From sequence record OP856590.1: a stretch of DNA of 64,000 nucleotides; one strand, 5' to 3'. Below the pieces are notes generated by a model. It saw only the letters and a list, made by a program, of their open reading frames with translations, searched no databases and was not told where the DNA came from. Source of the DNA: Escherichia phage Ec_MI-02. The position numbers and the translations under genes are program-made. Below, piece by piece: positions 5,384 to 64,000 of the stretch; positions within the stretch are counted from its first letter, which is position 1, and every line of letters begins with the position of its first letter.

Positions 5384-5452
5384 GTTATCGAGTTGGTGCC
5401 ATTATATACATCATTTTCTGAGTGTGTTTTGTGTGCTTTCAAAATGAAGAAA

Positions 5453-5466
5453 GGGGCCGAAGCCCC
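5453..5466 (-). terminator. stem-loop downstream of hoc
   Basis: GGGGC-TTCG-GCCCC on the minus strand just after the hoc stop. Confidence 0.6.
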
Positions 5467-5471
5467 TAAGA

Positions 5472-6602
5472 TTATGGATAGGTATAGATGATACCAGTTT
5501 CTAAAGCAGTTTTATGAATGATGTATCCATTACGTGATTCTTGAACATCAACTTCTGGATAGTCTTTCATCATCTTCTGAAGGGTGTAACGATGCAGGTA
5601 GTATTTACTATCTGGATCTTCAGTTTTCCAATCTTTACCTTCTTCGGTCATTTTTTGGATTTCATCCATAACCCACCAACCGCACCAGATATAAGCCGAA
5701 GTACGATGTGGAAGAGGATGAACATAAGGCAATTCACCTTCTGGTTCTGGAGCAACTTTATCAGTTACCTGAACTTGACCTTCTGCTGTGATAGTTTTGC
5801 TATCATAATCAGTAGCGGTAACAGTTGCAGTAACTTCAATAGTTTGACTTCCAATAGATGATGTATCAACCGTGTATACATTAGTTGACCCTTCTACTGG
5901 AGAAGAATCTTTCTTCCATGAATATTCGATTTGTGCTTCTTCTGGAGCATCCGTAACATTAGCAGTAAATGTAGCCGAAGCATCTTGCTGAACGTTAATA
6001 GAAGGAGGAGTCAATGTAACCTGTGGATTCATTGTTTTCTTATTAACTGTTAATGATACTTCATTAGAAGTAACTTCCTTTTCATTGTAATTTTCTGCAG
6101 TTACTTGCGCTACACACTTAACTGTTTTAGCTCCAACTGTGGTAGGAGTATAGTTAAATGTAGTAGTAGTTTCTCCATCGACCAGAGAACCGTCAACATA
6201 CCACTGATACGTAGCAGACGCTCCTGGTGGCTGTGAAGCCAAGGCAGCAGTAAATTGAACTGGGGTTCCAATTACTCCGGCAGCAGGATTAGCAGGAGTT
6301 ACGGCTAACGTAGTTGTCTGTGTCTTATTTTGAACTGTGATAGTTGTAGTAGTTTCTGCTGTTTCAGGTTCAGATTCTGCAACTTGATTGGTTGCAACCA
6401 CCTTAATAGTCTTTTGACCGGCAGGTCCTTTTAGTACATAACTAAAAGTTGCTTCAGATCCATCTTGTGGAACATCGTCTACAGTCCAAGCATATGTAAT
6501 AGGTCCATCTCCAGTTTGACCACTGGGTGTAGCAGTAAACTGCTGAGTCTGATCTATAACTCCAGTAGGTGTTTTAGGAGTTATATCAACTGTAAAAGCC
6601 AT
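5472..6602 (-). CDS. hoc: highly immunogenic outer capsid protein Hoc
   Basis: 376 aa; MAFTVDITPKTPTGVIDQ N-terminus and repeated Ig-like segments recognised as T4 Hoc. Confidence 0.95.
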   Translation of the reverse strand: MAFTVDITPKTPTGVIDQTQQFTATPSGQTGDGPITYAWTVDDVPQDGSEATFSYVLKGPAGQKTIKVVATNQVAESEPETAETTTTITVQNKTQTTTLAVTPANPAAGVIGTPVQFTAALASQPPGASATYQWYVDGSLVDGETTTTFNYTPTTVGAKTVKCVAQVTAENYNEKEVTSNEVSLTVNKKTMNPQVTLTPPSINVQQDASATFTANVTDAPEEAQIEYSWKKDSSPVEGSTNVYTVDTSSIGSQTIEVTATVTATDYDSKTITAEGQVQVTDKVAPEPEGELPYVHPLPHRTSAYIWCGWWVMDEIQKMTEEGKDWKTEDPDSKYYLHRYTLQKMMKDYPEVDVQESRNGYIIHKTALETGIIYTYP

Positions 6603-17699: not shown

Positions 17700-17730
17700 T
17701 TTGTGTTCCTCATGTTATGTCAGTAAAACT

Positions 17731-17759
17731 ATTGTAACACAACACGAGGGACTTGTAAA
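17731..17759 (-). promoter_or_regulatory. sigma70-type early promoter (TTTACA-17-TACAAT) with conserved leader
   Basis: minus-strand GTTTACAA, 17-nt spacer, TACAAT; part of a 53-bp element repeated at 33441-33493. Confidence 0.6.
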
Positions 17760-19817
17760 CTACATCTTGAACTTTTTAGACATTCCGTTGATGTTAACCA
17801 AAGAAGCCAAGATTTGAGAAACTTCGTTTTCCTCTTCTTTTGATTCTTCTACAAGGAATTGATTAAACCCAGCCATTGGACGAACTTCACCAGTTTCCAT
17901 TAGATGATCGCCATCATATACCGATTCTTCTAATTGTTCAGAAGGAGGAACGATTGTGCCTTCGATTAGATACTTATTATAAGCAGTTTCTTTCATCATG
18001 TACGTGCTCACTTTATTAATCTTCAGCAAAATTCCACGCGGTAAAATAACTTCAGCTTCTGATGGAAATCCTGATAAATGACCTGGAACGATAACTTTGA
18101 TTCGCTCAGCCCCTTTAATTACCATACCTACGCTAGTTTCAGCATCTTCATTAGCATATGCAGAATGACTACCCATATGCATTAAATCTTCAGCATCAAC
18201 AGAACCTTCTCCTTCACCAGAAAATACTGCGCCGGAATCATCTAGAGCCATATAGTTTTTACCATGCTCACCGAAGATATTTGGTTTAAGCGATGTTGAT
18301 ACGAAGTTCTTGAAATAGAACATTTTATTTTCAATATTATGACGTAAAGTTTTAAAAGTAACTTCTTGTCCACGATAAAGCGTAGTTCCCGGAGGAAGAA
18401 CTGATCCTTTGGCAAAGGCAGAATCCATTGTCTCGATGTGTTTAATAGCTCGTTCCATGTATTCTTCACGGGTAGAATCTGGTTTACCCAAGAGGAACGA
18501 GTTCATTTCAACATATGAATCTGCACAATAATCTTCGATTACATCAGACTCAGCCTGAGTCAGTCCTTTTGGAGTTACTTCGGTGCTTGCATATTCATAT
18601 GCCTGAGCAGCAGATTCATTAATCAATTTATAAATGCCATTCATGACAAATTGAATAATAGCTACCTTTTCGTCTGGTGTGGCTTTAGAACCTTTAACTA
18701 AATCATTGATAATTTTCTTAATAACATCAAAGCTATTAGAAATATTAATGTCAGCGAGATCGCTCAAAATTTTATCGGTTTTATAATCAAAAAATTCTTT
18801 ATTCTTTAAATATTCTTGAGAACCTTGATGTGTTATATCGCTCTGCAGTCTGATAGACGGATCACGTAAACGTGCATGGGCCAATGCAATATGATTTCGG
18901 AAGCTTTCTAGTTCATAATCGCTAGATTTAAAACGAGAAGCACTTCTCATACCACCGATAGCTCCTTTTCCGAAGTTTGAACCAATCTGAATAACACCAG
19001 AGTTCATTGGTCCTTCTGCTTTATATACCGGAACTTTAGATTCAAACTCTTGATATTTCTTGGCAGCGAAGCTATCACCCTGAAGCGAAGCATCTACAGT
19101 AGAATATTGAGCTTGTGCTGCCAATCGACGACTAATTTTAGTTTTCTGAATAACAGCTTGATCCGTGCGCTTATCATTTTCTAAAGCAATAGAAGCAGCA
19201 ACAGCAACAGCTTTAGGAACAGCATTACCTGTTTTAACATCTACATAAACATCACCAACCTTTGATTCAACTTTTGTGAATAACTCAGTTGAAATAGGAG
19301 GTACACCTGGAATGTCTTCTAAATTGGCATTTTTACGGTAAACCATAATATATGCATACTTTTTATCATAATCCCAGATTTCCTTTAAAAGAACATATCG
19401 ACCTGCTCCTTTAGTACGTACTAAACGGTCAGCAATAACTTGCATTTGACGAGCAGCTCCATTTGTTTTACTTTTTAGTACGCGGAATAGGCATGCGTCA
19501 ATTTTATACTGTTTCATTGTTTGAAGAGCAGTATCAAAAACCGCATTAATGACACCAATTGGATTTCCACCCAAGTTTTTAAGTTTAACTAATGATAGTT
19601 TCTCATTAACACCTATCATTACGATATGCATCATTTTATCGCCTGGCTTAACGTTTTTATTTGTATCACCACCAGAGGTGTATGTACAAAATCTAAATCC
19701 AGGAAGCACACTTTCTTCGCCGGCTTGAATAGCAAAAATTTGAGGTATTTTATGCTTAGGATTTAAGTTAACAATCGGCGCCGAAGCGCCGTCAAATAAT
19801 TCTGTAATAAGTTCCAT
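17760..19817 (-). CDS. Alt-like ADP-ribosyltransferase paralog (copy B, diverged)
   Basis: 685 aa; N-terminal third similar to copy A; retains the ART motifs Arg (LYRGQ), FVSTSL and E-x-E (EAEVILPRG). Confidence 0.8.
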   Translation of the reverse strand: MELITELFDGASAPIVNLNPKHKIPQIFAIQAGEESVLPGFRFCTYTSGGDTNKNVKPGDKMMHIVMIGVNEKLSLVKLKNLGGNPIGVINAVFDTALQTMKQYKIDACLFRVLKSKTNGAARQMQVIADRLVRTKGAGRYVLLKEIWDYDKKYAYIMVYRKNANLEDIPGVPPISTELFTKVESKVGDVYVDVKTGNAVPKAVAVAASIALENDKRTDQAVIQKTKISRRLAAQAQYSTVDASLQGDSFAAKKYQEFESKVPVYKAEGPMNSGVIQIGSNFGKGAIGGMRSASRFKSSDYELESFRNHIALAHARLRDPSIRLQSDITHQGSQEYLKNKEFFDYKTDKILSDLADINISNSFDVIKKIINDLVKGSKATPDEKVAIIQFVMNGIYKLINESAAQAYEYASTEVTPKGLTQAESDVIEDYCADSYVEMNSFLLGKPDSTREEYMERAIKHIETMDSAFAKGSVLPPGTTLYRGQEVTFKTLRHNIENKMFYFKNFVSTSLKPNIFGEHGKNYMALDDSGAVFSGEGEGSVDAEDLMHMGSHSAYANEDAETSVGMVIKGAERIKVIVPGHLSGFPSEAEVILPRGILLKINKVSTYMMKETAYNKYLIEGTIVPPSEQLEESVYDGDHLMETGEVRPMAGFNQFLVEESKEEENEVSQILASLVNINGMSKKFKM

Positions 19818-19820
19818 GAT

Positions 19821-21878
19821 TTATCCTTGAACGAACTTGTAAGGCATGTTTGCAATATCTATGCAAGATGCAATAATTCCAAGAGATGATTCTACTTTTT
19901 GTTTAACATTTGATGAAACAAATGATGCAAAATCAACTCTGTCTTCTATTTCAATATCACCTGTCATTGCAACTACTTCACCGGTTTCCATTAGACGGTC
20001 ACCGTCATAAATTACTGATTCGGTGAGTTCTTCTGTAGTCATAACTTCAGCTTGAATAAGCTTGTTGTTAGTTTTAGCTGTTCCATCATTGTAAGATGCG
20101 TCGGTTATTTTATTGACTTTGACCATCAATCCACGCGGCAAAATGACTTCCATTTCATTTGAAGGCGCTAAACTTCCACCTGGTAAAACAACGTTGACTT
20201 TATCAGCCCCAGTAATAACCCATCCAATTCCAACTAAATTATCGCTAGAATTAACAAGTCCTTCATCGTTTTTATCGATAGAAATGTTTAGACGCTTTTC
20301 GTCTGGTAAAACACCCACAGCTGAATCAGTCATCCAAGTACCAAAAATGTTTGGATATAATGATGTTGATACAAAATTTCTAAAATAAAAAACTCGATTT
20401 TTTACCAATGCTTCATATATTGAAGGTAACATTCGCTGTGAACGATATAAAGTAATACCTTTTGGCAGTCGATCACCATTTTTAAAGGCTGAATCTAAAT
20501 TATCGATGGCTTGTTCTATTTCTGGTGCTGTTAAAATACTTGTACGCTCATCTGGATTATATAATCCCAAAAGAGCATTATTCATGTCTACATATCCTGA
20601 ACCTACGTATTCACGAATTCCGCGTTTTTGTGCCGGTGTGTATTTAGATGAATCTTTATTTTCGACTATAGAATGCAATGACCATCCAACGGTAAGAGCA
20701 TATCCACGTAATTCTCTTCGAATAATCTTTGTTTTTATTGCATTCCAAGAATTTTGCACTAACTCATTCGCAGCATCTTGATTTAAATGCGAATGCTTGT
20801 TAATATTTCTTTCTAACCAAGCACCTTTATATTTTTCTAAAGTATCATCAACTATAGAAGCAATAGTTTCTAAAGTTTTTATTGAAGTAATAGATTCTTT
20901 TCGTAATCTTTCTAAAGCTTTATTTTTTATTTCTGCATTAACATCAGATTCTTTATCTTCAGGAATTATAGAAGCTTCTCTGAATGCCATTCCAGCTGTA
21001 ACACTATTAAGAGCATTCTCTAATGCAAATCCTGAAGTAGAAATAACAGTTAATTCGTTAGCATCAGAAATTAAAGGCGCGTCAGCGGGTTTATTTAATT
21101 CTGCTGCTGAAGCCTCAAATTTTTGAAACATTGGTGTTTCAAATCTAGAAGATTCTAACGATTGACTTTGTGCAATTGCTCTACGGGAAATTTTAACTTT
21201 AACGATTACAGCTTGATCAGAACGTTTATCGTTTTCTTGCGCAATAGATGCTGCAATTGCCTCATTTTTAGTTACTTGAGCTCCAGTATCTTTATTGATA
21301 TAAACATCACCGACCTTCGATTCAACTTTAGTAAAGAGCTCGGTACTAATTTCCGGAACTCCTGGAATGTCTTCTAATGATACATTTTTGCGATGTATAA
21401 GAATATATGCGTACTTTTTATCGTAATCCCAGAGTTCCTTAAGAAGGACGTATCTGCCACCTGAACGACTGCGGATAAGTCTATCAGCAATAAGTTGAAT
21501 TTGACGAGCTTGACCAGCAGTTTTAGACTTAAGAATACGGAGCATACAGGCATCAATTTTATACTGACGCATCGTCTGCATCGCAACAGTAAAAACTGAA
21601 TTGATGTAATTAATTGGGCTTGGACCGAGACCTTTTAATTTAGCAATTGAACCTTTGGCAGTTAATGTAAAAGGAACAATATGCATCATTTTATCGCCCA
21701 TCTTTAAATCGCGATTAGTATCACCTCCAGATGTATAAGTACATAAACGAAAGCCTGGTTGTTCAATTGCGTCATCAACATGAACTGAAAAAATTTGCGG
21801 TATTTTCTTCTTTGGATTTAAGTTTGTAATCGGAAGAGTAGTATCTTCGTCAAATAATTCTGTAATAAGTTCCATCAT
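19821..21878 (-). CDS. alt: Alt ADP-ribosyltransferase (virion-packaged)
   Basis: 685 aa; MELITELFDEDTTLPITNL N-terminus; ART motifs LYRSQ, FVSTSL, EMEVILPRG. Confidence 0.9.
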   Translation of the reverse strand: MMELITELFDEDTTLPITNLNPKKKIPQIFSVHVDDAIEQPGFRLCTYTSGGDTNRDLKMGDKMMHIVPFTLTAKGSIAKLKGLGPSPINYINSVFTVAMQTMRQYKIDACMLRILKSKTAGQARQIQLIADRLIRSRSGGRYVLLKELWDYDKKYAYILIHRKNVSLEDIPGVPEISTELFTKVESKVGDVYINKDTGAQVTKNEAIAASIAQENDKRSDQAVIVKVKISRRAIAQSQSLESSRFETPMFQKFEASAAELNKPADAPLISDANELTVISTSGFALENALNSVTAGMAFREASIIPEDKESDVNAEIKNKALERLRKESITSIKTLETIASIVDDTLEKYKGAWLERNINKHSHLNQDAANELVQNSWNAIKTKIIRRELRGYALTVGWSLHSIVENKDSSKYTPAQKRGIREYVGSGYVDMNNALLGLYNPDERTSILTAPEIEQAIDNLDSAFKNGDRLPKGITLYRSQRMLPSIYEALVKNRVFYFRNFVSTSLYPNIFGTWMTDSAVGVLPDEKRLNISIDKNDEGLVNSSDNLVGIGWVITGADKVNVVLPGGSLAPSNEMEVILPRGLMVKVNKITDASYNDGTAKTNNKLIQAEVMTTEELTESVIYDGDRLMETGEVVAMTGDIEIEDRVDFASFVSSNVKQKVESSLGIIASCIDIANMPYKFVQG

Positions 21879-25816: not shown

Positions 25817-25833
25817 AGTATTTTCCTCAGTAA

Positions 25834-25847
25834 GGGGCCGAAGCCCC
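25834..25847 (-). terminator. stem-loop after the upstream 121-aa gene
   Basis: GGGGC-TTCG-GCCCC on the minus strand. Confidence 0.55.
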
Positions 25848-25856
25848 TGTTTTATT

Positions 25857-26222
25857 TTAAATATCAAATTCGTTAAGAACTACATCAAAGATTGCTTCAA
25901 GATGCTCAGGTTTAGCTCTGTTACTCAGAATATGACGAATCCAAGTTTTAACCAGAAGCTTGCGATTAACGCCATTCCAGCAAGGATGAGTCCCTAAATC
26001 GCGTTGACGAAAATCATCATCCAAAGCGATTTTGAAGTTGGAACCTTCCATTGTGATTGAAACCGTGATGCCATTTTCAAATCGCATATAAACGTAGTTA
26101 GGAGTCATATACTGTTCAATTTCGCATACTGATCCATTTTGATGTTTCCAAAGGCAAATAGTATCAATAGAACCTGCAATACCGTTAGAAACATATTTAC
26201 GTTCAAAGTTGATGTAGTTCAT
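25857..26222 (-). CDS. hypothetical protein (121 aa)
   Basis: ORF with its own early promoter. Confidence 0.65.
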   Translation of the reverse strand: MNYINFERKYVSNGIAGSIDTICLWKHQNGSVCEIEQYMTPNYVYMRFENGITVSITMEGSNFKIALDDDFRQRDLGTHPCWNGVNRKLLVKTWIRHILSNRAKPEHLEAIFDVVLNEFDI

Positions 26223-26259: not shown

Positions 26260-26287
26260 ATAATATCATATCCTGTACCAAAGTAAA
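26260..26287 (-). promoter_or_regulatory. sigma70-type early promoter
   Basis: minus-strand TTTACT, 16-nt spacer, TATTAT. Confidence 0.5.
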
Positions 26288-26290
26288 CAA

Positions 26291-26650: not shown

Positions 26651-26679
26651 ATACTATCACAAAGGAACCATACTGTAAA
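26651..26679 (-). promoter_or_regulatory. sigma70-type early promoter
   Basis: minus-strand TTTACA, 17-nt spacer, TAGTAT. Confidence 0.5.
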
Positions 26680-26710
26680 CAACTTTGTGCAATCTTTGGA
26701 AAATAAAAAA

Positions 26711-30138: not shown

Positions 30139-30167
30139 ATAATATCACAACTCTACCGTAAAGTAAA
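30139..30167 (-). promoter_or_regulatory. sigma70-type early promoter
   Basis: minus-strand TTTACT, 17-nt spacer, TATTAT. Confidence 0.5.
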
Positions 30168-30170
30168 CTA

Positions 30171-33435: not shown

Positions 33436-33463
33436 AAAGTCCTCATGTTATGTCAGTAAGACT

Positions 33464-33492
33464 ACTGTAACACAACACGAGGGACTTGTAAA
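33464..33492 (-). promoter_or_regulatory. sigma70-type early promoter with conserved leader (copy of the 17708-17760 element)
   Basis: minus-strand GTTTACAA, 17-nt spacer, TACAGT; 53-bp near-identical repeat. Confidence 0.6.
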
Positions 33493-33496
33493 CAGC

Positions 33497-41335: not shown

Positions 41336-41364
41336 ATAGTATCACACTACTACCCTTTTGTAAA
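41336..41364 (-). promoter_or_regulatory. sigma70-type early promoter
   Basis: minus-strand GTTTACAA, 17-nt spacer, TACTAT. Confidence 0.55.
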
Positions 41365-41745
41365 CTACTTTTTGAAAGTTTTTCGCAAAAGTTCAATGAT
41401 TTCGTCTACATTATTTTCGTCAACAATGCAGTGAATTTTTGTTACGCCAGAAACCTTGTCTTCGACTTCATCTTCTTCGGAAGTCGGTTCTTTATACTCA
41501 CGAAAACAATGAAATTCGTCTTCGCAAATTTCTAAAAGTCTATCTTTGAGGTAAAAATGCTTTCCGTTAGCGCATTCAATATGTTTTACCGCTTTAAATC
41601 CATTAGCAAAGAAAACTTCTTTAACTTCAAACCATCCGCCATTTTCTCGAATAATTTTAACTATTGACGCGTTGGATCGTGGGCTATAATTAATAAATGT
41701 ATCAATAAGTCTTGGAACAAGTTCATACTTTTTGCCAATATACAT
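41365..41745 (-). CDS. hypothetical protein (126 aa)
   Basis: ORF in the frd upstream region. Confidence 0.6.
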   Translation of the reverse strand: MYIGKKYELVPRLIDTFINYSPRSNASIVKIIRENGGWFEVKEVFFANGFKAVKHIECANGKHFYLKDRLLEICEDEFHCFREYKEPTSEEDEVEDKVSGVTKIHCIVDENNVDEIIELLRKTFKK

Positions 41746-41789: not shown

Positions 41790-42020
41790 TTATTGTTCAA
41801 TCAATCCCATGTAAAATTCTGCGTCTTCAGAATCCATGCCGTCACAATACTCATTAGCCATAAAGCGGGTGAGGTCTTCAAGAGGACCTTCAATGACAAT
41901 AGAAAAATTGCAATAATTGGGATCATCGTGAATACTTGTGATACTAAGTTCAGGATAACGATTACGAATAATTTCTTCAATATATTCAAAATCAACGATG
42001 TCAATATCAACTTTAGCCAT
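41790..42020 (-). CDS. hypothetical acidic protein (76 aa)
   Basis: start trimmed to ATG 42020 (MAKVD...) with strong RBS AAAGAGGAAAA. Confidence 0.6.
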
Positions 42021-42052
42021 ATTATTTTCCTCTTTAATCATCAGCAGTATTG

Positions 42053-42142
42053 CCGATAGTTGTATAGTACCATAAAGCTTTATGCTTGTAAACCGTTTTG
42101 TGAAAAAATTTTGAAATAAAAAAGGGGACCTCTAGGGTCCCC
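42053..42142 (-). repeat. early promoter plus stem-loop cassette (PeSL-like), copy 1
   Basis: hairpin GGGGACC-TCTA-GGGTCCCC, A/T tract, TTTACA-17-TACTAT; near-identical to 58125-58226. Confidence 0.6.
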
Positions 42143-57467: not shown

Positions 57468-58103
57468 TCACAGTTCAGATGCTACGGTGATTACTGCTTC
57501 AATGTTTTCTGCCGAGCGTTTAATGTCAAGATACACATTACCGTTTTTAGCGATTTTACATGACATTCCGATATCAGTAAATTTCTGAATATGATGTTCC
57601 ATCATTTTGTATCCAAAAATTCGCATATTTCCGTTGTTGTTAATTTCAAAATTGCGAATTCCGTGAGTGCGTTTTTCTAAAATAGCAAGATAGTTACTGC
57701 GGTAAGTTTCAACCTTTTTAAGAACAAATCCATTTTCATCTAAAAGTTTTAACATGAAGTCTTTATCTTCTTCCATATCGGAAGTAATCTCACGAGCTTT
57801 ACGAGTTGCTCGTTTTTTCAGCAGTTCAGGAGCATTTTCCTGTGCGTATAAAGTTGCTGCGTTTGAAATAATATCCTGAGCTTCACCAGTAATGATTAAT
57901 CCATCACCAGATTTCTCCACCAGGCCTTTTTTAATCAATACCCCAATATTACTATTAACTACTGCATTACCTAAATCTGGATGCACCTCACGAACTTCTG
58001 CAGCTGTAATGAAATCTTTCTTAGCAATGGTAATTAAAATCGCAGCAGTTTTTTCATTCAGAACATCGTTAGAAGCTTTGATGATGTAAGTTACTTTAGA
58101 CAT
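57468..58103 (-). CDS. motA: middle-transcription activator MotA
   Basis: 211 aa, MSKVTYIIKASNDVLNEKTAAILITIAKKDFITAAEV. Confidence 0.95.
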   Translation of the reverse strand: MSKVTYIIKASNDVLNEKTAAILITIAKKDFITAAEVREVHPDLGNAVVNSNIGVLIKKGLVEKSGDGLIITGEAQDIISNAATLYAQENAPELLKKRATRKAREITSDMEEDKDFMLKLLDENGFVLKKVETYRSNYLAILEKRTHGIRNFEINNNGNMRIFGYKMMEHHIQKFTDIGMSCKIAKNGNVYLDIKRSAENIEAVITVASEL

Positions 58104-58124
58104 TTTCTAATCTCCGTAATTCTG

Positions 58125-58226
58125 TATCAGTAGTTGATAGTTGTATAGTACCACAGTATGCTTTGGTTGTAAACCATTTTGTGAAAAAATTTTTTGAAAT
58201 AAAAAAGGGAGAGCCGAGGCTCTCCC
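58125..58226 (-). repeat. early promoter plus stem-loop cassette (PeSL-like), copy 2, upstream of motA
   Basis: hairpin GGGAGAGCC-(loop)-GGCTCTCCC, A/T tract, GTTTACAA-17-TACTAT, conserved leader. Confidence 0.6.
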
Positions 58227-58231
58227 TAAAA

Positions 58232-58381
58232 TTACTGCATGACTGTGATAACTGTCATGATAACACGTTGAATTCCGAACGCAAGAAGACCTCCTGCTAC
58301 GGCAGGAACAACACCTAAACCCGCCAGTAAAACGCAACCAGATACTAATGCAGCGCTTGTAATACCTATGAATGGACTCAT
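58232..58381 (-). CDS. small hydrophobic membrane peptide (49 aa), not in ORF track
   Basis: ATG overlaps the gene 52 stop (ATGA); MSPFIGITSAALVSGCVLLAGLGVVPAVAGGLLAFGIQRVIMTVITVMQ. Confidence 0.5.
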   Translation of the reverse strand: MSPFIGITSAALVSGCVLLAGLGVVPAVAGGLLAFGIQRVIMTVITVMQ

Positions 58382-61445: not shown

Positions 61446-61474
61446 ATAATACCACAGAGGAACAGTCTTGTAAA
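61446..61474 (-). promoter_or_regulatory. sigma70-type early promoter
   Basis: minus-strand GTTTACAA, 17-nt spacer, TATTAT. Confidence 0.5.
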
Positions 61475-61692
61475 CAACTTTTTTAAAAATATTCGTAATA
61501 AATGTGAATACCAACTACTACCGCTGAAACTTGCGCAACCCACCATGCACAAGCAATAAGTACAGAATTCAAAATTTTCATAATAACCTCATTACAAAAG
61601 TAAATGTTAAACAAATTAATGGAATACTAATTAACCAAATAAAACACCACCACAATGAACTCATAGTTCAATCTCAACGATTTTCATTTTAC

Positions 61693-61899
61693 TCAATAAT
61701 CTGCTAAAAGATCGACGATTGCATCACGAAGACACTTATTCGCAATACGTTTAAGAGCAATTTCAGTTTCTGGAGCATTTTGAATAATCATTGAATTCAA
61801 TTCAGCCTCAGCAAACTGAAGTTCTTTAACTAATTCAGCTTTATATTTTCCTTGCCCTTTCTTAGCTTTTGCTCGTTTTAATTCAGCTGTAGTAAACAT
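61693..61899 (-). CDS. hypothetical protein (68 aa)
   Basis: start trimmed to ATG 61899 with RBS GGAGAA. Confidence 0.55.
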   Translation of the reverse strand: MFTTAELKRAKAKKGQGKYKAELVKELQFAEAELNSMIIQNAPETEIALKRIANKCLRDAIVDLLADY

Positions 61900-61923
61900 T
61901 TTATTCTCCAAATCCGTATCAGT

Positions 61924-61975
61924 TGATAGTTGTATAGTACCACAGTCCTTGTGGTATGTAAACCGTTTTGTGAAA
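61924..61975 (-). repeat. early promoter cassette (PeSL-like, partial), copy 3
   Basis: GGTTTACAT-17-TACTAT with the same conserved leader as copies 1 and 2; no upstream hairpin. Confidence 0.55.
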
Positions 61976-61980
61976 ATTTT

Positions 61981-62538
61981 TTAAATGGAAAGATACCATC
62001 CGTTGTAGTTGCTTTTTCTTACAACCTTACGAAGGTCTTCTCTGTCACCAATGAACTTCGGAGTGTATTGAATGACACCTGGATGAATTTCTTTAGTGTT
62101 GAATATAATTATACAGTCAGCGACCTGATGATTCAGAATGGGCCCTAGATTTATTCCAGAACCATATGGATACTCTCCGCTGCATCCTGTTGTTACAGAA
62201 ATCCAACGTGAGTCAGTTTGATGTGTCTTAACTTCTACACGAAGCCCGCAGTATCTTGGATGCGCCAATACATCCCATGCGTATGTATACGGGTCATTAA
62301 CGTCCTCTTGGCCTTTATTAACATACCCGCTTAGCCAATCTGCTACAAAAAACTCTGCGTACACCGCGATACGGCATCTTTCGATAACTTCTGCTTTATC
62401 CTGATTTGGATTTTGTTTTAAAGAGTATCTTGCTGTATCAGCAATTTTGACCTTCATTTCACTAGTCAAGTCACTGTTCGATAGGGTAAATGTCGGAATC
62501 TGAAATAGTCTCTGTAAACCCGGATTCGTTTTCTGCAT
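61981..62538 (-). CDS. denB: endonuclease IV
   Basis: 185 aa; overlaps the upstream ORF by 68 nt, so an internal ATG at 62457 is an alternative start. Confidence 0.8.
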   Translation of the reverse strand: MQKTNPGLQRLFQIPTFTLSNSDLTSEMKVKIADTARYSLKQNPNQDKAEVIERCRIAVYAEFFVADWLSGYVNKGQEDVNDPYTYAWDVLAHPRYCGLRVEVKTHQTDSRWISVTTGCSGEYPYGSGINLGPILNHQVADCIIIFNTKEIHPGVIQYTPKFIGDREDLRKVVRKSNYNGWYLSI

Positions 62539-62800: not shown

Positions 62801-62820
62801 AATTTTTCCTTAAAACAAAA

Positions 62821-62833
62821 GGGCCGAAGCCCC
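62821..62833 (-). terminator. short stem-loop
   Basis: GGGC-TTCG-GCCC on the minus strand followed by a T-rich tract. Confidence 0.45.
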
Positions 62834-62838
62834 TTATT

Positions 62839-63033
62839 TTATTTGAATTGTGCAATTCTTTTTTCTAAACAGTCTGCGTAAGATTTCATTGAGATGAACT
62901 GTGAAAGCAGTAATTCTTGCTCAACTTCATTAACTGATAGAAACTTTGTGCTTTCTAAAAATTTGCTCAGTGCATTAATTTTGAGCATTAATTGATCGTA
63001 TTCTTCTTTTACTCGTGCTTGATAACCTAACAT
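62839..63033 (-). CDS. hypothetical protein (64 aa)
   Basis: ORF with RBS AAGGAAAA downstream of rIIB. Confidence 0.6.
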   Translation of the reverse strand: MLGYQARVKEEYDQLMLKINALSKFLESTKFLSVNEVEQELLLSQFISMKSYADCLEKRIAQFK

Positions 63034-63049
63034 AATTTTCCTTAGTTAA

Positions 63050-63061
63050 GGGCCGAAGCCC
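63050..63061 (-). terminator. short stem-loop after rIIB
   Basis: GGGC-TTCG-GCCC directly after the rIIB stop. Confidence 0.45.
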
Positions 63062-64000
63062 TTATTTAAATTGTTCAGTAACGTCTTCAACTACTTCGTA
63101 TTGGCAGGTACGCATTTTAGCATCGTTGTAATCAATCGGAATTGATACTACATCGCGAGGATGTACTTTAACTTTTACAACTCGGCTGGTTGAACTGCCA
63201 AAGTGACGAATATAAGATTTAGAACATACATGCAGACCACGAGAACAAGTTTGTGTATCATCGTCGTTCACACGAGTACGTGGCATTTTAACTACTTTAC
63301 CAGGACTGTTATCAAAAGTATTTGAATGGCAGTCAAAGTAATTGCTGCGAACTACTTTCCAAGCATAAAAGTAGCCATCTTCTGTAATTTCAATATCGTT
63401 TGCTACCAAGAAATCAAAGAGTCGAGATACCGCTTTTTGGCTCGGGTTTTCCAACAGATTTTCCAAGAACGGAAAATAAAATTCAAAGTTTTCGCCTTTT
63501 TCCATCGAATCGAGAATACGATCAACTAAACCAGACCGCAATTCAATATTTTGATAGAACAAGCTTCCACCTTCAATTCGAACATCACCGGAAATATATT
63601 TTTCAACAGCGCGACGAACATTAATTTTTTGTGCCGCTTCTTCCAATTTATCTGCAACAAGCAGATTAAGAATTTCCTGGAAGTTTGAATGAGTATTAGG
63701 AGTTGCGTTATAAGTTACACCATCAACAGTAATTGAAATGAATTTTTTAGATGCATTCCAAATAATGTCAGATTTAGCAACTGGAGCAATAGCTGTATCG
63801 CTATTAACTTTAATAGTAATGTCACCGCTAATGGTAACTTTGGAGCGTTCAGCTTCTTCAGCATTTTTCAAAACACGACGGATTGTGTCAACCGATACAC
63901 CTTGCCAATCAGCCAATTCCTGCTGGGTATAATTACCACTTGAATACAGTTTGACAATTTCAGCTTGTTCGTTTTTGGTCAGGCATTTAATATTGTACAT
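63062..64000 (-). CDS. rIIB: RIIB rapid-lysis protein
   Basis: 312 aa, MYNIKCLTKNEQAEIVKLYSSGNYTQQELADW; the ATG lies exactly at the window end. Confidence 0.95.
   Translation of the reverse strand: MYNIKCLTKNEQAEIVKLYSSGNYTQQELADWQGVSVDTIRRVLKNAEEAERSKVTISGDITIKVNSDTAIAPVAKSDIIWNASKKFISITVDGVTYNATPNTHSNFQEILNLLVADKLEEAAQKINVRRAVEKYISGDVRIEGGSLFYQNIELRSGLVDRILDSMEKGENFEFYFPFLENLLENPSQKAVSRLFDFLVANDIEITEDGYFYAWKVVRSNYFDCHSNTFDNSPGKVVKMPRTRVNDDDTQTCSRGLHVCSKSYIRHFGSSTSRVVKVKVHPRDVVSIPIDYNDAKMRTCQYEVVEDVTEQFK

Follow-up and report, generated by a model that had tools for sequence, protein, structure and literature searches.

In T4/PST-type phage genomes, PeSLs (promoter-early-stem-loop elements) are described as a stem-loop just upstream of an AT-rich region, followed by a promoter sequence of the form TTTACW-N17-TAYWAT, a Shine-Dalgarno sequence (SD), and a start codon (PMC4122927). 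For RB49/phi1, inverse PCR showed that neighbouring PeSLs form mini-circles (Arbiol et al. 2010, PMC2839356), and an exchange of ndd.4/.5 in the denB-ndd region is presented in Fig. 6A of Comeau, Arbiol and Krisch 2014 (PMC4122927). PeSL-PeSL recombination has so far been documented only by inverse PCR and pairwise genome comparison. T4 early promoters as such are composed of UP, −35, TGn, and −10 elements with extra conserved regions (Hinton 2010, PMC2988021). The three elements described below are very probably composite regulatory cassettes (terminator, strong early promoter, and leader) of the T4-type PeSL kind. This class of elements is already known from T4/PST-type genomes, and the finding is correct but not new; its value lies in confirmation, in corrected gene assignments, and in added detail on exchange between cassettes.

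Three cassettes on the minus strand of a T4-like genome

The stretch of DNA analysed (64,000 nucleotides, hereafter the window) makes up the final 64 kb of a Tequatrovirus (T4-like) genome and keeps the T4 map order from ~105 kb to the rIIB end. Around the copies, identity to many Tequatrovirus genomes is 97%; the same value holds for the final 24 kb of the window when compared with Shigella phages Sfk20 and KNP5. Upon re-reading of the sequence, three elements were found on the minus strand at the places that an initial annotation had assigned to them. A 20-mer, TTTTCACAAAAYGGTTTACA, searched for with up to three mismatches, has exactly three sites in the window, all with 0 mismatches, against 0.03 expected from shuffled sequence. 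The likeness of the three copies is far beyond chance. A repeat search grouped the same copies at 77–78% ungapped identity over 69 nt; ungapped pairwise values are too low owing to 1–3-nt indels in the A/T tract and the leader, and a gapped comparison was used. The conserved core had been put at about 50 bp, which is too short: homology begins at the T-run behind the hairpin and extends up to the leader, and copies 2 and 3 remain alike for ~15 nt more within the leader. Beyond these limits, the flanks of the copies are unrelated. The features of the three copies and of their neighbours are as follows.

42011–42142, minus strand: copy 1, between the gene 32 terminator and frd.3
42124–42142, minus strand: copy 1 hairpin GGGGACC-CTAGA-GGTCCCC, predicted intrinsic terminator after gene 32 (stop codon 42165–42167)
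42094–42123, minus strand: copy 1 T-run and A/T block, TTTTTTATTTC-AAAATTTTTTCACAAAACG (terminator U-tract and UP-element-like block)
42064–42093, minus strand: copy 1 core promoter, with GTTTACA at 42087–42093, palindromic spacer AGCATAAAGCTTTA, and TGG-TACTAT (extended −10) at 42064–42072
42011–42063, minus strand: copy 1 initially transcribed block, ACAACTATC at 42055–42063 (conserved), and leader (locus-specific)
42028–42033 and 42018–42020, minus strand: copy 1 leader signals, SD AGAGGA and frd.3 ATG, respectively
41790–42020, minus strand: frd.3, 76 aa, acidic, downstream of copy 1
58104–58227, minus strand: copy 2, between the motA.1 terminator and motA
58232–58381, minus strand: motA.1, a 49-aa membrane ORF, the last gene of the upstream transcription unit predicted to end at the copy 2 hairpin
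58206–58227, minus strand: copy 2 hairpin AGGGAGAGC-CTCG-GCTCTCCCT, predicted intrinsic terminator, 9 bp
58175–58205, minus strand: copy 2 T-run and A/T block, TTTTTATTTC-AAAAAATTTTTTCACAAAATG (UP-element-like)
58145–58174, minus strand: copy 2 core promoter, with GTTTACA at 58168–58174, spacer ACCAAAGCATACTG, and TGG-TACTAT at 58145–58153
58104–58144, minus strand: copy 2 initially transcribed block, ACAACTATCAAC at 58133–58144 (conserved), and leader with a GGAG SD at 58112–58115
57468–58103, minus strand: motA, 211 aa, downstream of copy 2
61900–61985, minus strand: copy 3, between denB and the 68-aa ORF
61964–61985, minus strand: copy 3 A/T block, TTTAAAAAATTTTCACAAAACG, overlapping the denB stop codon (61981–61983), without an upstream hairpin
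61934–61963, minus strand: copy 3 core promoter, with GTTTACA at 61957–61963, palindromic spacer TACCACAAGGACTG, and TGG-TACTAT at 61934–61942
61900–61933, minus strand: copy 3 initially transcribed block, ACAACTATCAAC at 61922–61933, and leader with a GGAG SD at 61906–61909; the leader ends 3′ in GGAGAATAAAATG, which forms the 5′ junction of the indel comprising the 68-aa ORF
61693–61899, minus strand: 68-aa ORF (phrog_4535), downstream of copy 3, a variable gene that is absent from T4
61661–61687, minus strand: ORF87 remnant, MKIVEIEL*, 8 codons (the 87-aa ORF is intact in many relatives)
61446–61475, minus strand: next early promoter downstream of copy 3, before an ndd.4-like ORF; a looser relative, 64% identical to copy 1

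Common to the three copies are TTTTCACAAAA[C/T]G-GTTTACA, a 17-nt spacer from TTTACA to TACTAT, and TGGTACTATACAACTATC; the A/T tract, GTTTACA, and the 17-nt spacer are present in each copy, as the initial annotation had it. Read 5′ to 3′, a cassette consists of a GC hairpin that is particular to its locus (in copies 1 and 2 alone), TTTTTTATTT(C/T), AAAA(A)TTTTTTCACAAAA(C/T)G, GTTTACA, a 14-nt variable spacer segment, TGG-TACTAT, ACAACTATC(AAC), and a leader ending with GGAG or GAGG and ATG. The early-promoter consensus TTTACW-N17-TAYWAT takes the form TTTACA-N17-TACTAT in 3/3 copies, with TGG directly before the −10 element, and all copies have an AT-rich region 5′ of the −35 element and an SD with a start codon at the 3′ end. 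The full set of T4 early promoter elements is present (UP-like A/T block, GTTTAC −35, TGn, −10, and an early gene downstream). A sequence said to be conserved in the initially transcribed region of all copies, AACTATCAAC, is found in copies 2 and 3, while copy 1 reads AACTATCGGC. The consensus of the E. coli UP element is AAAWWTWTTTTnnAAAA, and the A/T block of the cassettes resembles a near-consensus UP element when compared with it, in keeping with the published make-up of T4 early promoters (PMC2988021). The start of transcription in copy 2 is predicted to lie near position 58138. The DksA paper holds no data on the motA early promoter. RegB nuclease cuts GGAG in early translation-initiation regions (PMC3014915), and the GGAG SDs of copies 2 and 3 are, by their motif, the kind of site that this enzyme cuts in early mRNAs.

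A GC-rich hairpin with a U-run behind it, placed where a transcription unit ends, is the mark of an intrinsic terminator and is found in copies 1 and 2 only. Folding gave −14.3 kcal/mol for the 7-bp GC stem of copy 1 (GGGGACC/GGTCCCC) and −18.9 kcal/mol (z = −5.7) for the 9-bp stem of copy 2, which has a CUCG loop and a T-run; no significant hairpin was obtained on folding of copy 3 (−4.2 kcal/mol, like shuffles). The terminator scan and folding thus agree with the initial annotation that copies 1 and 2 have upstream hairpins and copy 3 has none, but in copy 1 the 3′ arm of the stem, which had been given as GGGTCCCC, reads GGTCCCC. The hairpin lies 4 nt past the stop codon of motA.1 in copy 2, and 22 nt past that of gene 32, whose product ends …DDLLNDL*, in copy 1. 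A terminator downstream of gene 32 was predicted in 5/6 T4-like genomes (Nolan et al. 2006, PMC1524935). There were 0 matches to Rfam curated RNA families at gathering score in the whole window.

Other repeated sequences were noticed in the window. A GC hairpin, (A)AGGGGCCGAAGCCCCT(T), recurs with variants between genes at 5447–5475, 25820–25857, 62806–62843, and 63035–63072; example sites are rIIB/denB.1 and denB.1/next ORF. It contains the motif GGGC…GCCC, which Mosig tied to T4 deletion endpoints, as quoted by Arbiol et al. 2010 (PMC2839356). A second dispersed promoter pair, at 17707–17760 and 33440–33493 (minus strand), is 96% identical over 54 nt including the spacer and the leader (GTTTACAagtccctcgtgttgtgtTACAAT…). 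Its T4 counterparts are at 123093 and 136336, and it represents a paralogous family distinct from the three copies. The features at 17760–19817 and 19821–21878 (minus strand) are tandem full-length 685-aa ORFs, which have 42% mutual identity, both carry a PF03496 ADP-ribosyltransferase domain, and occupy the T4 position of alt and the truncated alt.-1/alt.-2 duplicate. Alt is an injected enzyme that stimulates some early promoters.

Five other promoters of the window (minus strand, 26260–26288, 26651–26680, 30139–30168, 41336–41365, and 61446–61475) have a spacer complementary to the 22 nt after the −10 element, often including the SD. Complementarity of at least 6 nt between the spacer and the region after −10 was found in 5/13 early promoters of the window and in 18/39 T4 sites (control 7.8%); at least 8 nt was found in 8/39 T4 sites (control 0.3%). 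Since the transcription start would lie between the two arms, the anti-SD arm would be present only on upstream read-through RNA, and the complementarity could restrict translation to transcripts that begin at the promoter of the gene itself. The three cassettes have no spacer complementarity to the region after −10; two of the three have self-palindromic spacers instead.

The cassette sub-family and its spacers

The GenBank and RefSeq records of T4 come without promoter features, and T4 promoters were re-derived by a pattern scan of the assembled genome. The cassettes of the window have nearly identical counterparts at all three loci in T4. Further full copies are found at 43/imm.1, at nrdC.11/nrdC.10, and between e.8 and the tRNA region, and a partial copy at nrdC.9/.8. 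The sub-family therefore has six full members in T4. Identities within the family were compared with those of other promoter pairs over 39 early-promoter-like sites. In the 30 nt upstream of the −35 element, identity was 0.81 within the family and 0.38 in other pairs (95th percentile of the latter, 0.67); in the 20 nt downstream of the −10 element, the corresponding values were 0.88 and 0.45 (0.70). In the 14-nt spacer segment, the family (0.35) was at the level of other pairs (0.37; 95th percentile, 0.71). The sub-family is a discrete cluster, since both blocks exceed the 95th percentile of other promoters, and the proposition that the copies are no more alike than a promoter consensus would make them does not stand. 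Two fixed blocks around a free spacer are unlike a recent duplication, and would fit a strong functional constraint on both blocks. As a separate observation, the T4 cassettes upstream of imm.1 and downstream of denB share the promoter, the leader, and the first four codons (ATGAAAATCGCT, MKIA); homology of paralogous cassettes can therefore enter coding sequence.

A scan of IMG/VR and metagenome contigs with TGGTACTATACAACTATC returned ~85 copies from ~25 T4-like genomes or contigs. At the 32-to-frd.3 locus, four unrelated types of 14-nt spacer were observed in 13 genomes. The spacer of T4 and of the window, AGCATAAAGCTTTA, is the nrdC.11 type; ACCAAAGCATACTG is the motA type; TACCACAAGGACTG or TACAACAAGGACTA is the denB type; and a TCCTTGTCCTTCCA-like spacer is nearest to the e.8 / 43-imm.1 type. 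Each of the four matches, exactly or nearly, the resident spacer of another cassette locus. The motA, denB, and nrdC.11 loci retain their own spacer types, from which a few genomes deviate by single bases. Co-conversion took in position −37 in only some of the genomes, and the exchange events thus have differing endpoints. The pattern at the frd.3 locus indicates ectopic gene conversion between cassettes, which can explain the presence of identical non-consensus 14-mers at different loci, while a shared consensus cannot.

A broader reading, which we put forward tentatively and regard as possible though somewhat doubtful, is that the sub-family evolves in concert, its interior (the −35/−10 spacer, at times with −37) having been copied repeatedly between loci, with the gene 32/frd.3 cassette as a recurrent recipient. 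If true and not already described, this would be evidence for PeSL-PeSL recombination from natural populations and at nucleotide resolution, and would raise the question of why the frd.3 site is a sink. One speculation is that the sink arises because a site for the homing endonuclease SegG lies close by, upstream of gene 32. The spacer swaps of the frd.3 cassette are the only result of this analysis that may exceed the literature.

Apparent deletions were seen on the 168-kb contig IMGVR_UViG_2974787500_000001, whose motA.1 and nrdC.11 cassettes both have the hairpin fused directly to the spacer/−10 part. The T-run, the UP-like block, and the −35 element are gone from both (~50 bp each). These fusions may reflect two genuine deletions that inactivate the promoters, or they may stem from faulty assembly.

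Genes flanked by the cassettes

The initial annotation had permuted the flanked genes: copy 1 precedes the 76-aa acidic ORF, copy 2 precedes motA, and copy 3 precedes the 68-aa ORF. The 76-aa acidic ORF is Frd.3 (Pfam PF05798), with 731 phage records and identities down to 38–60% in other genera. The suggestion that the flanked ORFs are recent acquisitions held for the 68-aa ORF and failed for motA and frd.3, which are conserved. In all examined relatives that have this cassette, motA is present and syntenic with it, either directly behind it or after an inserted 75-aa ORF. The 68-aa ORF is patchy, with 128 phage records versus 496 for the adjoining denB in the phage collection; ORF87 has 623. 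At copy 1, the interior of the cassette alone varies, while the ORF downstream of the denB, motA, and nrdC.11 cassettes varies among relatives.

Four states of the denB locus were found: cassette-orf68-ORF87 (UFV-AREG1), cassette-orf68-remnant (the window), cassette-remnant only (T4), and cassette-ORF87 (an IMG/VR contig). The orf68 indel starts exactly at the cassette ATG and ends at a repeated GAGTAAAATG. The 68-aa ORF does not lie between two full cassettes, its 3′ junction being only this 10-nt SD-ATG repeat, GAGTAAAATG; copy 3 and the promoter at 61446–61475 bracket small variable ORFs. ORF87 was lost by a 237-bp deletion between AAATGAAA repeats (8 nt, unrelated to the promoter), and T4 has the same deletion. 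An unannotated mini-ORF, MKI(V/A)EIEL*, overlaps the start of ndd.6 in the window and in T4 and is the C-terminal remnant of ORF87 (phrog_2390).

At the motA locus, the 75-aa ORF lies between the cassette and motA in five relatives, and in one examined contig another early promoter comes after this ORF, with 22 nt of the first promoter's leader repeated in its own. A derivation of the two motA-locus alleles by a single deletion between promoters flanking the 75-aa ORF was considered and rejected, as it would not yield the motA leader of the window. At the nrdC.11 locus, either nrdC.10 or a 49-aa ORF is found downstream. The association of cassettes with indels is partly correlation, because early promoters concentrate in variable regions anyway.

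Proposed mechanism, alternatives, and known systems

In the mechanism that we propose, the GC-rich hairpin and T-run of copies 1 and 2 would close the upstream unit (gene 32 and genes 52-motA.1, respectively). The T/A-rich stretch would continue as the UP-like block (AAAAATTTTTT-CA-CAAAA), to be followed by GTTTACA, the 17-nt spacer, and the extended −10 element TGG-TACTAT. Because of this combination of a UP-like block, a GTTTACA −35 element, a 17-nt spacer, and an extended −10 element, unmodified host σ70 RNA polymerase would start immediately after infection, ~7 nt past TACTAT. Transcription would yield a leader that is poor in G and presumably unstructured (ACAACUAUCAAC...), with a GGAG or GAGG SD and the ATG of frd.3, motA, or the 68-aa ORF. 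The anatomy, the family structure, the spacer swaps, and the indel junctions are seen directly in the sequences; we infer promoter and terminator activity in this phage from its sequence and from T4, and likewise infer the transcription start and the recombination mechanism. The two ~30-bp near-identical blocks (UP/−35 and −10/leader) are long enough for phage homologous recombination; in natural relatives, internal segments have been traded among cassettes, by ectopic gene conversion on our reading, and the cassettes border sites where ORFs were inserted, deleted, or replaced. Much of the likeness of the flanking blocks may be functional constraint and not recombination, because a background spacer between near-identical blocks is also the pattern left by purifying selection on polymerase contacts. 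The three copies of the window cannot viably shuffle together, because crossing-over between them would delete essential genes (gene 52, tail fibre genes).

The mechanism has to be weighed against the view that the elements are simply three very good T4 early promoters, whose likeness stems entirely from selection for optimal UP, −35, TGn, −10, and leader sequences, with no role in shuffling. The conserved blocks do coincide with RNA polymerase contacts while the spacer is at background identity, weaker versions of the blocks occur in other early promoters (tttcAcAAAgttGTTTACa; TACTATtaccctATCAACTAc), extra conserved regions of T4 early promoters have been published (PMC2988021), and motA and frd.3 are conserved genes. 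Promoter strength, however, does not predict identical non-consensus 14-nt spacers at non-orthologous loci, nor that the orthologous frd.3 locus carries four different spacers, each with its match at another locus. The family is also a discrete cluster (0.81/0.88 against 95th percentiles of 0.67/0.70), the T4 43/imm.1 and denB cassettes share the leader to the ATG plus the MKIA codons, and an ORF indel has its junction at a cassette ATG. We therefore consider selection alone an unlikely account.

Exchange endpoints inside the cassette could also mean that an integron-like, dedicated site-specific recombinase or DNA-binding protein, and not general homologous recombination, acts on the hairpin and the conserved blocks, and Arbiol et al. 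speculated along these lines about GGGG...CCCC stems (PMC2839356). The hairpins, however, are locus-specific, and copy 3 has none, yet its denB-type spacer is found at another locus. Endpoints vary, with −37 co-converted or not, and no candidate recombinase was seen among the ORFs next to the cassettes. A dedicated recombinase is very unlikely. Still less credible is an origin of the copies as remnants of a mobile element or as a recent segmental duplication carried to three places. They are dispersed direct repeats of ~70–100 bp in one orientation, as such an origin would have it, but their flanks are unrelated, with homology ending at the hairpin and in the leader, terminal inverted repeats and target duplications are absent, no transposase- or recombinase-like ORF is found among the ORFs adjoining the cassettes, and the spacers differ wholly between copies. 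The cassettes are also old and syntenic, because the same loci are occupied in T4 and ~25 relatives. This origin was rejected on the unrelated flanks, the old syntenic positions, and the differing spacers. Composite cassettes of the PeSL kind, as proposed above, would explain how T4-like phages give small early genes a strong, insulated expression signal of their own. They would also provide short shared sequences for gene swaps between co-infecting phages. In annotation, they can be used to mark the starts of early transcription units and sites of gain or loss of accessory ORFs.

The anatomy agrees with the published T4/PST definition (PMC4122927), and the PeSL classification of the initial annotation is borne out. 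Copies 1 and 2 contain every sequence element of a PeSL; copy 3 is a half-PeSL or a plain early promoter, because it has no stem-loop. Genome type (T4/PST-like) and, in copies 1 and 2, the whole architecture are as in described PeSLs; a link with ORF indels and replacements is seen at copy 3 and, through the inserted 75-aa ORF of some relatives, at copy 2. The published ndd.4/.5 segment adjoins copy 3 in the same denB-ndd region. The copies differ in that motA and frd.3, out of the three genes they flank, are conserved and not ORFans, and in that the stems are locus-specific GC-rich terminators, while the frequent form in PST is given as AGNA...TCNT (PMC4122927). The available text of the two PeSL papers (PMC2839356, PMC4122927) makes no mention of the fine structure described here, in which six members form a sub-family that keeps two blocks fixed and swaps the spacer.

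With intrinsic terminators, copies 1 and 2 share the GC-rich stem, the short loop, and the T-run; unlike in a plain terminator, the T-run goes straight into the UP-like block of the next promoter, and we propose that one A/T stretch serves both. With T4 early promoters, the copies share GTTTAC at −36 to −31, an A-rich −40s region, TGn, and a −10 element of the form TAnnnT, and they stand directly 5′ of early genes (motA, frd.3); they differ in forming a sub-cluster tighter than the general consensus. Lambdoid morons and integron gene cassettes are similar in presenting small accessory genes as self-contained expression units, with conserved borders that permit insertion while neighbours remain undisturbed. 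In contrast to these systems, the copies appear to lack a site-specific recombinase or an attC-like site, exchange seemingly proceeds via short homology and general recombination, and core genes are driven as well.
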